From sequence record OR352947.1: a stretch of 64,000 nucleotides of DNA. The stretch is one strand, 5' to 3'. This DNA is from Escherichia phage AV117. A program made the translations under genes and the position numbers. The notes beneath the pieces were generated by a model. The model saw nothing but the letters and a program-made list of their open reading frames with translations. It was not told the origin of the DNA and ran no database searches. Below are positions 19,539 through 23,787 of the stretch, in pieces (within the stretch, counting starts at the first letter, position 1; every line of letters begins with the position of its first letter).

Positions 19539-21352
19539 TGGTGTTTAACCCTATGCATGATTTCTTTATTTTTGCCGAGATTAAATCCACGTTCATTCGG
19601 ATTTCCAAGATAACCGCATGTTCTTCTTATTGTGTTCATCTTTTTAGGATCAGTTTCTCCACAAATAGAACAAACAAATCCGTTTTCGGTAGGAGTCATT
19701 TCATGGGTACTTCCACACGTAAAACATTTATCTACTGGCATATTAACACCAAAATAATCTAAATGTTGCGCAGCATAATCCCAGACAGCCTCAAGACCTT
19801 TTAGGTTATTTTTCATATCAGGAAGTTCAACATAAGAAATGTGTCCACCGGTCGCAATGAAATGATATGGGGCTTCGCGAGAAATCTTTTCAAACGGAGT
19901 AATATTTTCTTCTACTGAAACGTGGAAACTATTAGTGTACCAGCCTTTATCAGTAACATCTTTTACACTTCCATATTTTTCGATATCAAGTTTACAGAAG
20001 CGATAGCACAGGTTTTCAGCAGGTGTAGAATACAAGCTAAAAGCAAAACCGGTTCTTTCGGTCCACTGCTTAAGACGAGCATTCATTTTAGTTAAAATTT
20101 CCTTTCCAATATCACGACCGACAAGAATATTCAATTCGTGAATACCAATGTATCCTAAGGACACTGAACTTCTACCGTTTTTAAATAACTCAATTATATC
20201 GTCCTCAGGTTTAAGACGAACCCCGAATGCACCTTCTTGGTAAAGAATAGGAGCAACAGTAGCTTTAACTCCTTTTAAGGAACTAATTCTACACATCAAA
20301 GCTTCAAAACACAGATCCATTCGTTCATTAAATAGCTCAACAAATTTCTGTTCATTGAATTGTGTTCCAATATAAGAATCTAACGCAATACGAGGAAGAT
20401 TCAGTGTTACAACACCAAGATTATTACGTCCATCAAGAATTTCATTACCGGTCGAATCTTTCCATACGCTCAAGAAACTACGGCAACCCATTGGAGAAAC
20501 AGGAACAGATGAACCGGTGATAGCTTTATTATTCTTAACTGAAATAATATCAGGATACATTCTTTTGCTTGCGCATTCTAAAGCAAGCTGCTTAATATCA
20601 TAGTTCGGGTCGTCTTTATAAAGATTGACACCCTCTTCAACGAACATAACAAGTTTAGGGAAAATAGGAGTTATTCCATCACGACCAAGACCTTTGATAC
20701 GATTTTTCAGAATTGCTTTCTGAATCATTCGTTCAGTCCAGTCAGTTCCCGTGCCAAATGTAATTGTTACAAAAGGCGTTTGTCCGTTTGAACTAAAGAG
20801 AGTATTTACTTCGTATTCATACGCTTGGAATGCATCGTATACGTCTTTTTCTGTTTTAGATTGGGCATAATTCAACGCATCAGCGATTTGCCATTTTTCT
20901 GCATCCTCAATATGTTTTGCATAGGTGCGTTTAACATAAGGAGAAAGTACTTTATCTACATTAGCAAAAGTCGTTCCGCCGTACTGATGTGAAGCAACTT
21001 GTGCAGTAATTTGTGCCATAATTGCAGTAGCAACGCCGATTGATTTAGGAGTTTCAATTTGAGCATTGCCTAATTTAAATCCATTCTCAAGCATCCCCTT
21101 TAAATCGACTAAACAGCAATTAGTAAATGGAAGAGCAGGAGAATAATCAATATCATGGAAATGGATAATTCCGCTTTCATGTGCTTTCATAATAAAAGAC
21201 GGGACCATATTTTTGGCAATGTGCTTAGACACAATACCAGCCATAAGGTCCCGTTGAGTTGGAAAAACACGAGAATCTTTATTAGCATTCTCGTTCAAAA
21301 GATCTTTATTAGTTTTATGAATTAATCCTTCAATTTCTTTTTCAATTTTCAT
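19535..21352 (-). CDS. nrdD: anaerobic ribonucleoside-triphosphate reductase NrdD
   Basis: 605 aa; C-terminal glycyl-radical motif RTCGYLG and Zn ribbon CFTCGS...CSICG; uninterrupted (no intron). Confidence 0.95.
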   Translation of the reverse strand: MKIEKEIEGLIHKTNKDLLNENANKDSRVFPTQRDLMAGIVSKHIAKNMVPSFIMKAHESGIIHFHDIDYSPALPFTNCCLVDLKGMLENGFKLGNAQIETPKSIGVATAIMAQITAQVASHQYGGTTFANVDKVLSPYVKRTYAKHIEDAEKWQIADALNYAQSKTEKDVYDAFQAYEYEVNTLFSSNGQTPFVTITFGTGTDWTERMIQKAILKNRIKGLGRDGITPIFPKLVMFVEEGVNLYKDDPNYDIKQLALECASKRMYPDIISVKNNKAITGSSVPVSPMGCRSFLSVWKDSTGNEILDGRNNLGVVTLNLPRIALDSYIGTQFNEQKFVELFNERMDLCFEALMCRISSLKGVKATVAPILYQEGAFGVRLKPEDDIIELFKNGRSSVSLGYIGIHELNILVGRDIGKEILTKMNARLKQWTERTGFAFSLYSTPAENLCYRFCKLDIEKYGSVKDVTDKGWYTNSFHVSVEENITPFEKISREAPYHFIATGGHISYVELPDMKNNLKGLEAVWDYAAQHLDYFGVNMPVDKCFTCGSTHEMTPTENGFVCSICGETDPKKMNTIRRTCGYLGNPNERGFNLGKNKEIMHRVKHQ

Positions 21353-21822
21353 TTTAAACTCTTTCTAAGCTGCTTTTTGAATGAAGCTATTAATTGTGTT
21401 TTGGTATCAGATTCATTATATTCAAATCCTCTTTGAAGCATCTCAGCCATCATTTCCTCTTTACCTAGTCTTGAGAACTCTTTAGTTTTGTCTGGAACAA
21501 AATTAGGATGGATATTATTATCAGAATAATCTTGTTTCAAATAAGCAAGAAGAGCTTCAAGCCATTCGAGGTAGTCGACATCACGTCCTTTAAGACCGGA
21601 ACGGTTGAACTTATGCTTCATTTGACCTTCTGCTGCGTTGCACAGATTACAGAGTAACCCACGAACTCTACCGGCTTGTGGCCCGTTTAATTCGTGGTCG
21701 TGGTCAAGGTGGTTACCTTGAACATCAGGGTCTAATTCACGGTGGCAAATAGGACACTTACCGTTCTGTGCATCATAAAATTTTTGTTTTTCTTCTTTAT
21801 ATTTTGCGCCTGATAATAACAT
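21349..21822 (-). CDS. 49: endonuclease VII (Holliday junction resolvase) gp49
   Basis: 157 aa; CPICHREL...HLDHDHELNG...CNLCNAAEG; near-identical to T4 gp49 over the C-terminal half. Confidence 0.95.
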   Translation of the reverse strand: MLLSGAKYKEEKQKFYDAQNGKCPICHRELDPDVQGNHLDHDHELNGPQAGRVRGLLCNLCNAAEGQMKHKFNRSGLKGRDVDYLEWLEALLAYLKQDYSDNNIHPNFVPDKTKEFSRLGKEEMMAEMLQRGFEYNESDTKTQLIASFKKQLRKSLK

Positions 21823-21861
21823 GATAAACCCTTACCTTAAATAGATAAGGGTATTTATAAT

Positions 21862-22041
21862 TTAGTAAACGTTATAAAAGTCTCGATGAAAACGTTTATA
21901 TTGGCGAATCATTCTTTTAGTAGGACGTGTTACCGAAATGATTGAAGTCCTCATGTTCGGATTGTTTGGAGCACCAATTATAACAAATTTCCAAGATTTT
22001 TGACCGTTTGTTCTTTCGCCAAAAAATAATGCAGTTTTCAT
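21862..22041 (-). CDS. hypothetical small basic protein (paralog of 22466..22663)
   Basis: 59 aa MKTALFFGERTNGQKSWKFVIIGAPNNPNMRTSIISVTRPTKRMIRQYKRFHRDFYNVY; shares VxRPTKR...KR.HR.FY tail with 22466..22663. Confidence 0.45.
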   Translation of the reverse strand: MKTALFFGERTNGQKSWKFVIIGAPNNPNMRTSIISVTRPTKRMIRQYKRFHRDFYNVY

Positions 22042-22050
22042 AATAAGCCC

Positions 22051-22464
22051 TTAACTTAAACGTCTTTCTAAATATTCAATGTATTCCGCTGCGGCTTGCA
22101 TCAGATTACCTTCATAACCGTCATTATTTTCTTGGGCGGCTAATTTAGCTAAAGCATAAGAAATACGTTCACCTTCGAATTCGCCAAGTCCACCATCACA
22201 AACTACTTGGTCAATTTCTTCGAGTTCATCTATTGAATGGGATTCCCAGAAGCACCAAAGAGAAGTATCACGGTCATAGATGCAAAGTTTCTCACCTGTG
22301 TTCAACATCACTTCGATAATGCCATGGTCGCCATAACCATCTTCGGCAGTAGTACCAATTACCTTGATGATCGTATCTTTCTTTAATTCGGGAAACTTAT
22401 CTTGGAGTTCTTCGTCTTCTTTAACAATCTTGAACCATTTACCGCGAGTTTCAGAAATATTCAT
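22051..22464 (-). CDS. hypothetical acidic protein
   Basis: 137 aa ORF flanked by two paralogous small basic ORFs. Confidence 0.55.
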   Translation of the reverse strand: MNISETRGKWFKIVKEDEELQDKFPELKKDTIIKVIGTTAEDGYGDHGIIEVMLNTGEKLCIYDRDTSLWCFWESHSIDELEEIDQVVCDGGLGEFEGERISYALAKLAAQENNDGYEGNLMQAAAEYIEYLERRLS

Positions 22465-22465
22465 A

Positions 22466-22663
22466 TCAATATTCTCTATAAAAGTTACGATGAGAACGTT
22501 TAGCTTTGCGAAGCTGACGTTTAGTAGGACGAACTGTAAATGGTTGTCCAGAGAAAAAATTTGGTTCAGTTTTAATCAACACATACCAATCGTGTTCGCC
22601 GCTTTTTAATAAACGATATAACAATTTAACTTGCATAATAATCTCTTCCAATTTCCAAATCAA
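22466..22663 (-). CDS. hypothetical small basic protein (paralog of 21862..22041)
   Basis: 65 aa; C-terminal FTVRPTKRQLRKAKRSHRNFYREY. Confidence 0.5.
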   Translation of the reverse strand: MIWKLEEIIMQVKLLYRLLKSGEHDWYVLIKTEPNFFSGQPFTVRPTKRQLRKAKRSHRNFYREY

Positions 22664-22764
22664 TCATATCGTTTACTGTAGGTTCATCATAACACGTTTC
22701 TTCGTCGTTGTAAACTGTTTCGACGTCTGGCTCGACAGTTTCCCATCGAGCCGAATACCATGGT

Positions 22765-23121
22765 TTAACCCCGGAGTTTATTGAGCTCTTCATAATCAAT
22801 CCAGGATTCTAGCCCTGACGGCAGGTCACATTCAATGTTCCACAGAAGCTCTTCAACGGCTTGCAGGCGATTATATTCTTCAACGGTAATGGTAACCATT
22901 GGTGCAACCGGTTCCGCCTTTTTAACCATCATATCGTTCATCAGGACGTAAAGGTCATCACGAACGACGGTGTCGTTCCAACCCCATGATTTGGCTTCGT
23001 AAGCTAATGATGAAGGGAGCACATTTAAAACTTCAATAATAGTTGGAGCATCAGGACCAAGTTCATTGGCACAAACTTCGTATACATCTTGGAAATCTTT
23101 AAGATTTAATGAATATGTCAT
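22765..23121 (-). CDS. hypothetical protein
   Basis: 118 aa ORF; stop overlaps nrdC start region. Confidence 0.5.
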   Translation of the reverse strand: MTYSLNLKDFQDVYEVCANELGPDAPTIIEVLNVLPSSLAYEAKSWGWNDTVVRDDLYVLMNDMMVKKAEPVAPMVTITVEEYNRLQAVEELLWNIECDLPSGLESWIDYEELNKLRG

Positions 23122-23396
23122 TTAAAATATTCTCGCAGTTGGTCAAATCCACCAATATGACTTCCATCAGGAGCAAACACTTGAGGCATAGTCAATCCGA
23201 CTTGTGATTCACGTCCAAGCTTAACCAGAAGCTCAGCAATTTTCTCATCATCAAAAACACCTTTTTCTGGCATAACATTAATGAATTCGAATGGCTGTTT
23301 CTTAACAGTCAGCAATCGTTTCGCATTATCACAATAAATGCATTTATGAATAGTAGAGTCATACCCGTACACTTTAAACATTATTTTTCCTTTCAT
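23118..23396 (-). CDS. nrdC: thioredoxin/glutaredoxin NrdC
   Basis: CIYC active site; MFKVYGYDS...HKCIYCDNAKRLLTVKKQPFEFIN matches T4 thioredoxin closely. Confidence 0.92.
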   Translation of the reverse strand: MKGKIMFKVYGYDSTIHKCIYCDNAKRLLTVKKQPFEFINVMPEKGVFDDEKIAELLVKLGRESQVGLTMPQVFAPDGSHIGGFDQLREYFK

Positions 23397-23787
23397 CGAT
23401 TAAATATGTAATGCCAAATACAATACATGTAATAAAACCTGTGATACAGATAGAAACCAACAACACTGTACCAAAGAACCAAATCAAGTTATCTTTAGTA
23501 GTTTGTTTGATATCCATCTCACGAATTTCTATAGCTATCGTATCACCTTTATTCAGAAGCGTATAAAACGACGGTGATACATGCCTGTCAAAAACACGGC
23601 CTTGTTCATCTTTATAAACTGCAATAAATTCCAATTTAGAATATTTTCCTGTAGATTGGCCTGAGATTAATTCCACTACCTCCACAGGAATTACTTTAGT
23701 TTCCATGTAAGTATTCTGGCTGTTCCAAATGAATGGAATAATAGCAAAAACTAAAGCTGCGATAAAACAACGAAGGCTATATCTCAT
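23374..23787 (-). CDS. hypothetical membrane protein
   Basis: 137 aa; N-terminal and C-terminal hydrophobic segments. Confidence 0.5.
   Translation of the reverse strand: MRYSLRCFIAALVFAIIPFIWNSQNTYMETKVIPVEVVELISGQSTGKYSKLEFIAVYKDEQGRVFDRHVSPSFYTLLNKGDTIAIEIREMDIKQTTKDNLIWFFGTVLLVSICITGFITCIVFGITYLIDERKNNV

Follow-up and report, generated by a model that had tools for sequence, protein, structure and literature searches.

Two short TifA-family genes flanking the Lon inhibitor gene pin in a Mosigvirus genome

We analyzed a 64,000-nucleotide stretch of DNA (the window) from Escherichia phage AV117 (OR352947.1), a T4-like Mosigvirus similar to RB69 and JS09. Two small open reading frames (ORFs) on its minus strand, designated ORF A and ORF B, bracket an acidic ORF of 137 amino acid residues, and this arrangement agrees with the first-pass annotation of the DNA. 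We are confident of four points: A and B are real paralogous genes, they belong to the family of the phage protein TifA, they are predicted to fold like TifA and retain its RNA-binding motif intact, and they are accessory genes. The acidic ORF is, by homology, pin, the gene for the Lon protease inhibitor PinA. We consider it reasonably probable that these short-form members of the TifA family bind RNA and act as accessory counter-defence or host-takeover factors; both activities, and any connection in function with Pin, are inferred.

Family membership, predicted fold and paralogy of A and B

TifA is the ToxN inhibitory factor of T4-like phages and corresponds to gp61.4 of T4 (PMC9391042), and a weak tblastn match of A to 'gp61.4' gave the first lead to it. 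Both A (53.8 bits) and B (52.4 bits) scored above the cut-off (24.5 bits) of the Pfam family DUF7279 (PF23945), as did T4 TifA (72.7 bits), RB69 TifA (63.0 bits) and four other TifA homologs from the literature (62-71 bits). Since the TifA proteins, A and B match the same Pfam model, DUF7279 is the TifA family, with A and B as short-form members. A and B also matched phrog_3272 (E = 2e-30 and 7.9e-26, respectively), which TifA itself matched at E = 1e-8. Comparison by hhalign of the A/B alignment with TifA gave a probability of 96% (E = 4e-9), and comparison with an alignment of eight TifA homologs, whose sequences were taken from Table S2 of the 2023 NAR paper, gave 97% (E = 1e-10). The profile of the same eight homologs detected exactly two of the 1240 ORFs in the window, B (E = 1.5e-7) and A (E = 1.4e-6), and no canonical tifA was found in the window with this profile.

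The short-form subfamily appears to be tiny, because an exhaustive profile search of 1.84 billion representative sequences returned 7 proteins at E <= 1e-3, 3 of which were repetitive or long unrelated proteins; the search provided no clue to function. Word-indexed protein searches recovered close relatives only, a scan of IMG/VR yielded 12 loci, mostly from known isolates, and NCBIfam contained no match for A, B or Pin. Our literature search found no paper that mentions DUF7279 or the RB69 counterparts RB69ORF087c and RB69ORF089c.

The fold of TifA is a three-stranded sheet packed on a basic C-terminal helix with a conserved Pro-Thr cap (Guegler et al., PMC10853763). The AlphaFold2 models of A (strands 2-9, 15-22 and 31-36, helix 42-58; predicted local distance difference test score, pLDDT, 89.9) and B (strands 2-9, 15-24 and 27-33, helix 39-55; pLDDT 85.0) show this arrangement. 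The helix would be capped by P40-T41 in A and by P37-T38 in B. The basic residues of the helix in A (K42, R43, R46, K49, R50 and R53) form a stripe with i, i+3/4 spacing, as in TifA, and those in B are K39, R40, R43, K44, K46, R47 and R50. Residues P53, T54, K55, R56 and R59 of TifA thus have the counterparts P40, T41, K42, R43 and R46 in A and P37, T38, K39, R40 and R43 in B, and in a 14-member alignment of the family the cap and basic positions were either invariant or occupied by K or R only. The TifA variants P53A/T54A and K55A/R56A/R59A lose RNA co-purification, ToxN neutralization and ToxN co-precipitation; RNA binding in vitro (dissociation constant 0.4-2 uM) and RNA co-purification were shown only for TifA(RB69) (PMC10853763). 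The first-pass annotation had taken the basic tails of the two ORFs as a hint of nucleic-acid binding, and this suggestion gains in substance when the tail is seen as the likely counterpart of the Pro-Thr-capped RNA-binding helix of TifA. Among structures, a Foldseek search of BFVD returned only uncharacterized small proteins of T4-like phages (E >= 0.017), and searches of the PDB with the Pin sequence and the A/B profile returned no solved structure of the family or of Pin.

A and B are 36% identical over their full length (21 of 59 positions; BLASTP, E = 3e-10). Their local alignment score, 88, was reached by none of 5000 shuffled sequences (22.7 +/- 4.4, maximum 57). The tails alone scored 73 (shuffled, 20.7 +/- 4.4; 0 of 5000), and the N-terminal halves alone scored 32 (shuffled, 16.9 +/- 3.7; 14 of 5000). 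Each is the other's best non-orthologous match (88, compared with 41-72 to the TifA proteins), and together with the shared DUF7279 and phrog_3272 assignments this identifies them as paralogs that are mutually closest within the family. Both are basic, with isoelectric points of 11.4 (A) and 10.5 (B). Outside A and B the tail motif was absent from the six-frame translation of the window, and profile searches of all the window ORFs found no third copy resembling A or B.

The codon usage at shared residues suggests that the duplication is not recent. In the N-terminal halves none of the five identical residues is encoded by the same codon, so that synonymous sites look saturated there and the duplication would be old. 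In the helix-coding part 10 of the 13 identical residues share the codon (6.1 expected, P about 0.03), and over a 54-nucleotide helix-coding segment A and B are identical at 43 positions, compared with 35 and 34 between each of them and canonical tifA. Constraint, gene conversion or a combination of the two would explain this retained similarity. The earlier proposal of a local duplication is therefore partly right: paralogy and mutual nearness are upheld, and the duplication appears to be old.

The ratio of nonsynonymous to synonymous substitution rates (dN/dS), calculated by the Nei-Gojobori method, ranged from 0.06 to 0.17 in comparisons of A between Mosigvirus phages. Nine distinct A-type sequences from Tequatrovirus and Dhakavirus gave 0.02-0.25, and the informative pairs of B gave 0.12-0.19; B-type pairs with very few substitutions reached values of up to about 0.5. 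Because these ratios are low, we take A and B to be real genes, and they are under purifying selection.

Pin, the T4 PinA tail and the plasticity of the locus

The ORF between B and A is PinA by homology, and inhibition of Lon by this protein is likewise expected from homology. It matched Pfam family PF10465 (Inhibitor_I24) with 160.1 bits (cut-off 27) over profile positions 2-136 of 136, and phrog_2167 at E = 4.6e-51. The corresponding gene is annotated pin in RB69 and JS09, and the location of pin between gene 49.1 and gene 49 is common to T4, RB69 and PP01. The first-pass annotation, correct about the paralogy of the two small ORFs, had recognized neither the acidic ORF as PinA nor the small ORFs as members of the TifA family. 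Binding and inhibition of Lon were shown for T4 PinA, which carries a C-terminal extension absent from the Pin of the window, and reviews class the inhibition of Lon by PinA and by T7 gp4.5 as an anti-toxin-antitoxin (anti-TA) strategy (PMC10286901).

The extension of T4 PinA can itself be traced to an A-type gene. T4 PinA has 161 residues, and codons 44-58 of an A-type gene account for the last 15 (MIQQYKRLHQMFYNT). This tail lies outside the Pfam Pin model and is matched by the A/B profile at E of about 1e-5. In PP01 (L023, 255-877) pin encodes 148 residues and overlaps a separate A gene at TAATG; by comparison, T4 (L003, AF158101.6, 1398-1883) has lost the end of pin and A codons 1-43, and has no separate A gene. 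T4 PinA is thus a chimera with the remnant of an A-type gene, made by deletion. The 148-residue and 161-residue forms of Pin are both common, and clusters of the T4-type fusion comprise 460 and 144 member sequences. RB32 has the fused Pin tail plus an intact A, with a duplicated 22-nucleotide segment from the end of pin.

In the Dhakavirus phages JS10 (L005, 1529-2004) and IME281 (L006, same coordinates), two ORFs divide Pin between them and their order is permuted: a 57-residue ORF (profile positions 88-136) precedes a 100-residue ORF (positions 3-74). This arrangement suggests that Pin is made of two separable modules.

The distribution of A-type and B-type genes is consistent with an old duplication. 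In Mosigvirus, A-type genes are the immediate upstream neighbors of gene 49. The same holds for part of Tequatrovirus (RB32, PP01) and for Dhakavirus (JS10, IME281, QL01 and others), and in these two genera they stand alone at this position. Among the loci that we read, B-type genes were found only in the regions of JS09/RB69-like phages. Other T4-like contigs have pin with no TifA-like neighbor. The cassette matched 150 phage records, 53 of them with at least 80% coverage, and 40 evenly spaced records were sampled. The complete arrangement B-pin-A was present in 14, B-pin without A in 16 and A-pin without B in two; seven (about 18%) had only a single chimeric B/A gene, and the remaining one matched the B end of the query only (22% coverage). 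A and B are accessory genes.

The chimeric genes, found in AV109 (L007, 2001-2171), phiE142 (L020, 2974-3168), ST0 and others, follow B through ...HRNFY and continue with the last codons of A (NVY) and the sequence downstream of A. They lie directly upstream of gene 49, with pin deleted, and they represent precise deletions of pin by crossover within the two helix-coding repeats. F2-type phages show a clean deletion of A.

Related rearrangements were seen in the lineage of Salmonella phage S16. One member (L027, 14-988) has a short TifA-like gene, a 119-residue ORF and then an intact pin. S16 itself (L024, 1501-2197) carries a fusion, gp48.2, in which 18 codons from the start of pin run into a downstream TifA-like tail; the corresponding 18 residues match the N-terminus of a related phage's Pin exactly. 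It therefore appears, from this sequence comparison, that pin was once bracketed by TifA-like genes in this lineage too and that S16 lost the body of pin by fusion. Both gp48.1 and gp48.2 of S16 belong to DUF7279 and flank a 116-residue ORF, gp48.3. We considered gp48.3 as a diverged Pin and rejected it, its sole support being a weak FeoA match.

Several further variants were noted at the same locus. A metagenomic protein of 191 residues (P0049) is a B::Pin fusion in which the stop codon of B was lost by a one-nucleotide change, and another of 141 residues (P0050) is a Mosigvirus-type Pin whose end, ...EYLERRFHRDFYNVY, results from fusion to the last 9 residues of A. In RB69 a poly-A run of B (L001, about 2800-2840; window 22600-22610) has seven instead of six A residues, which causes a frameshift after codon 10, so that RB69ORF089c is annotated as just 38 residues; either B is a genuine pseudogene there or the homopolymer was misread in sequencing. 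Homing-endonuclease genes are inserted variously around gene 49, nrdD and pin, as in AV109 (L007, 2683-3504), L029 (2071-3150) and F2 (L008, 3890-4153); L029 has a SegE-like GIY-YIG gene right after pin. These insertions underline the high plasticity of the region.

Proposed role of A and B and alternative explanations

In the role that we favor, the basic helix face of A and of B would each bind RNA or another nucleic acid, and each protein would act as an accessory counter-defence or host-takeover factor. The target is plausibly a host toxin or nuclease that is associated with RNA and distinct from the ToxN variants handled by TifA, because the putative specificity loop is nearly absent from A and B. 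B-pin-A would then form a small variable counter-defence cassette, and the setting around pin is suggestive, since reviews count the inhibition of Lon among anti-TA strategies. The two helix-coding repeats of about 60 nucleotides also act as recombination substrates that give rise to the deletions and fusions seen in the locus. The variation in presence and absence of the genes is as expected for accessory counter-defence genes, and the bracketing of pin by TifA-like genes recurs in a second genus lineage, that of S16.

Several observations weigh on the other side. In pairwise comparison A and B resemble TifA mainly in the helix and show no significant similarity to it in the N-terminal halves, so that homology of the sheet rests on the profiles and the predicted structures. 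The loop between strands 2 and 3, about 20 residues long in TifA, is shortened to about 8 in A and to about 2 in B; hhalign places this region at 3-4 residues shorter in A/B than in TifA, and the N-terminal segment at about 10 residues shorter. In TifA this loop of about 20 residues is less conserved, is predicted by AlphaFold models to face ToxN, and was proposed to set specificity (PMC10853763). Of ten TifA homologs tested, six neutralized no ToxN or TenpN (PMC10853763), and therefore membership of the family does not predict the target; the tested panel consisted of homologs outside the short form (56-61 residues). Structure searches gave no match diagnostic of function. Finally, A, B and pin are each found without the others in related phages, all combinations of the three occur naturally, and they therefore do not form an obligate unit.

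One could instead suppose that A and B are general nucleic-acid-binding regulators, acting on phage or host mRNA or DNA or on the expression of gene 49, with no part in counter-defence. Both proteins are strongly basic (isoelectric points 10.5-11.4), TifA binds single-stranded and double-stranded DNA in vitro with similar affinity (PMC10853763), and in three genera the control region of gene 49 directly follows an A-type copy. However, a regulator needed by an essential gene would not be missing from about 60% of close relatives, and the only characterized members of the family are toxin inhibitors; we judge this explanation unlikely. A further idea is that A and B, or at least their basic helices, cooperate with Pin in acting on Lon. 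The helix would then be a module that binds Pin or Lon, present on a separate protein in Mosigvirus (in trans) and within PinA itself in T4 (in cis). A gene of the family lies next to pin in each of Mosigvirus, Tequatrovirus, Dhakavirus and the S16 lineage, natural fusions arose at least three times independently (the T4-type PinA tail, the FHRDFYNVY end of P0050, and the full B::Pin of P0049), and the T4-type fusion has become fixed across a large clade. Yet in canonical TifA, whose gene neighbors dmd instead of pin, this helix serves RNA binding. QL01-like and AV109-like phages have A-type genes but no pin, other T4-like contigs have pin but neither small gene, and A is missing from about 40% of Mosigvirus relatives. 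Moreover, Gln replaces two of the basic residues in the tail of T4 PinA, a change more suggestive of a tolerated remnant, and adjacent genes of T4-like phages fuse readily through microhomology recombination (PMC9391042). We therefore regard joint action on Lon as quite unlikely, and favor the recurrent Pin fusions being by-products of adjacency and of such recombination rather than signs of a functional link. We also considered the tail as a C-terminal Lon degron of the SulA type, and dropped this candidate once homology to TifA had explained the motif.

It might also be argued that A and B are decaying duplicates or recombination scars without protein function, in which the DNA repeats are what matters. 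Losses, chimeras and frameshifts are frequent (the additional A in the poly-A run of B in RB69, an additional T in the A of L009, and the B/A chimera in about 18% of relatives), and nucleotide identity is slightly raised in the helix-coding part. Against this, dN/dS was well under 1 in every informative comparison in three genera, the key residues are invariant, AlphaFold predicts a confident compact fold, and the reading frame is intact in the chimeras; such decay seems to us very improbable. A bolder form of the counter-defence role deserves mention, namely that B-pin-A is a second, previously unrecognized anti-TA cassette of the T-even type. In this form a protease inhibitor that spares host antitoxins would be flanked by two minimal RNA-binding TifA-like proteins that neutralize RNase toxins of new specificity, and the TifA-derived helix on T4 PinA would be functionally relevant (for example, in contact with nucleic acid or Lon) and no neutral scar. 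We put this forward as a speculation that is rather unlikely to hold in full.

A and B represent a new uncharacterized subgroup of a known family and not a new kind of system, and current understanding is not overturned. TifA is among the few phage inhibitors of toxin-antitoxin defence with a worked-out mechanism, and only the dmd-adjacent long forms have been studied. A and B are natural 'core-only' variants that keep the RNA-binding helix and have lost most of the proposed specificity loop, and they are suited to asking what the helix and sheet do alone and to seeking new toxin targets. DUF7279, labelled as of unknown function in the Pfam copy that we searched, is now tied to a characterized protein. 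In addition, the odd C-terminal extension of T4 PinA can be explained as a captured fragment of a neighboring TifA-like gene, and the locus offers a compact case in which repeats mediate the loss and fusion of genes in an accessory region of a phage genome.

Gene calls, neighboring features and likeness to known systems

The features are summarized in Table 1. The region from 21300 to 23400 is 97.5% identical to vB_EcoM-pEK20, about 97% identical to JS09 and 96% identical to RB69. The genes on the minus strand are arranged in the order nrdD, gene 49, ORF A, the 137-residue acidic ORF, ORF B, gene 49.1, an ORF of 118 residues and nrdC. The first-pass annotation gave A and the acidic ORF correctly. 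It started B at the TTG at 22663, which yields a reading of 65 residues; we placed the start at the ATG at 22636 (MQVKLL...), which is preceded by GGAAGAG, because every homolog begins at that ATG, and B is better given as 22466-22636. A had been called unannotated; in fact public relatives annotate it (RB69ORF087c, JS09_099), and both small ORFs are labelled 'hypothetical protein' in RB69 and JS09.

Table 1. Positions of the features discussed (window coordinates)
Feature	Position	Strand	Description or basis
ORF A	21862-22041	minus	59 residues; short-form TifA-family member (Pfam DUF7279); equivalent of RB69ORF087c / JS09_099
ORF B	22466-22636	minus	56 residues; short-form TifA-family member; equivalent of RB69ORF089c / JS09_097
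pin (PinA, Lon protease inhibitor by homology)	22051-22464	minus	137 residues; isoelectric point 4.34
Helix-coding 'tail' repeat of A, codons 38-59 (TRPTKRMIRQYKRFHRDFYNVY)	21865-21930	minus	DNA alignment with the B tail
Helix-coding 'tail' repeat of B, codons 35-56 (VRPTKRQLRKAKRSHRNFYREY)	22469-22534	minus	DNA alignment; codon identity
Gene 49 (endonuclease VII), downstream neighbor	21349-21822	minus	
Gene 49.1 homolog, upstream neighbor	22626-22799	minus	phrog_2382
TATAAATA and hairpin between the A stop codon and gene 49	21825-21859	minus	Sequence; RNA fold

Shine-Dalgarno-like sequences lie 6-7 nucleotides upstream of both A and B. The genes are tightly packed, with B overlapping the end of gene 49.1 by 11 nucleotides, the stop codon of B 1 nucleotide from the ATG of pin, and the stop codon of pin 9 nucleotides from the ATG of A. 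This packing on one strand suggests that B, pin and A are co-transcribed. Note that a scan for sigma-70 promoters and terminators gave nothing above the expectation from shuffled sequences, and the conclusion on the transcription unit was not drawn from it.

Directly after the stop codon of A there is the sequence TATAAATA (plus-strand 21852-21859), which we take to be a late promoter motif of the T4 type. A hairpin with a 10-bp stem (-12.9 kcal/mol, z = -2.5 by RNA folding) follows and ends just before the ATG of gene 49 (21822-21820). The element is kept upstream of gene 49 in T4, RB32 and PP01, and it presumably resembles the late-promoter and hairpin control of T4 gene 49. A search of Rfam gave nothing near threshold.

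The 118-residue ORF between gene 49.1 and nrdC (22765-23121, minus strand) matched phrog_3402, annotated 'antitoxin from a toxin-antitoxin system', with its C-terminal half (E = 3e-32), and showed a very weak match to the family of the T7 RecBCD inhibitor gp5.9. Its RB69 counterpart is split in two (091c and 092c). This ORF may be another counter-defence gene in the same stretch.

Compared with known systems, A and B most closely resemble TifA, with which they share the Pfam family, the predicted topology, a conserved Trp in strand 2 and the Pro-Thr cap followed by a K-R-x-x-R-x-x-K-R stripe, which TifA needs for RNA binding; all are small accessory proteins of T4-like phages. In contrast to TifA (68-98 residues), A and B have 56-59 residues; their N-terminal segment is shorter, and the loop between strands 2 and 3 is greatly reduced. 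A conserved H-R-x-F-Y, absent from TifA, forms their end, and they belong to phrog_3272 whereas TifA belongs to phrog_2375. Their genes lie between 49.1 and gene 49, adjoining pin, whereas canonical tifA adjoins dmd (61.5) in the 61.x region. The middle ORF resembles T4 PinA in its full-length Pfam match and in its position between 49.1 and gene 49, but residues 142-161 of T4 PinA have no counterpart in the Pin of the window, which ends in ...EYLERRLS; of these residues the last 15 are derived from an A-type gene and the approximately 6 before them are the ancestral end of Pin. The arrangement as a whole recalls the dmd-tifA-adfA region, called an anti-TA island (Srikant et al. 2022), which likewise consists of small early accessory genes, each related to an anti-TA factor. 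Both loci are highly variable and reshaped by recombination at short homologies, but B-pin-A lies at a different locus, in the nrdC-49 region, and Pin is its only member with a known biochemical activity.

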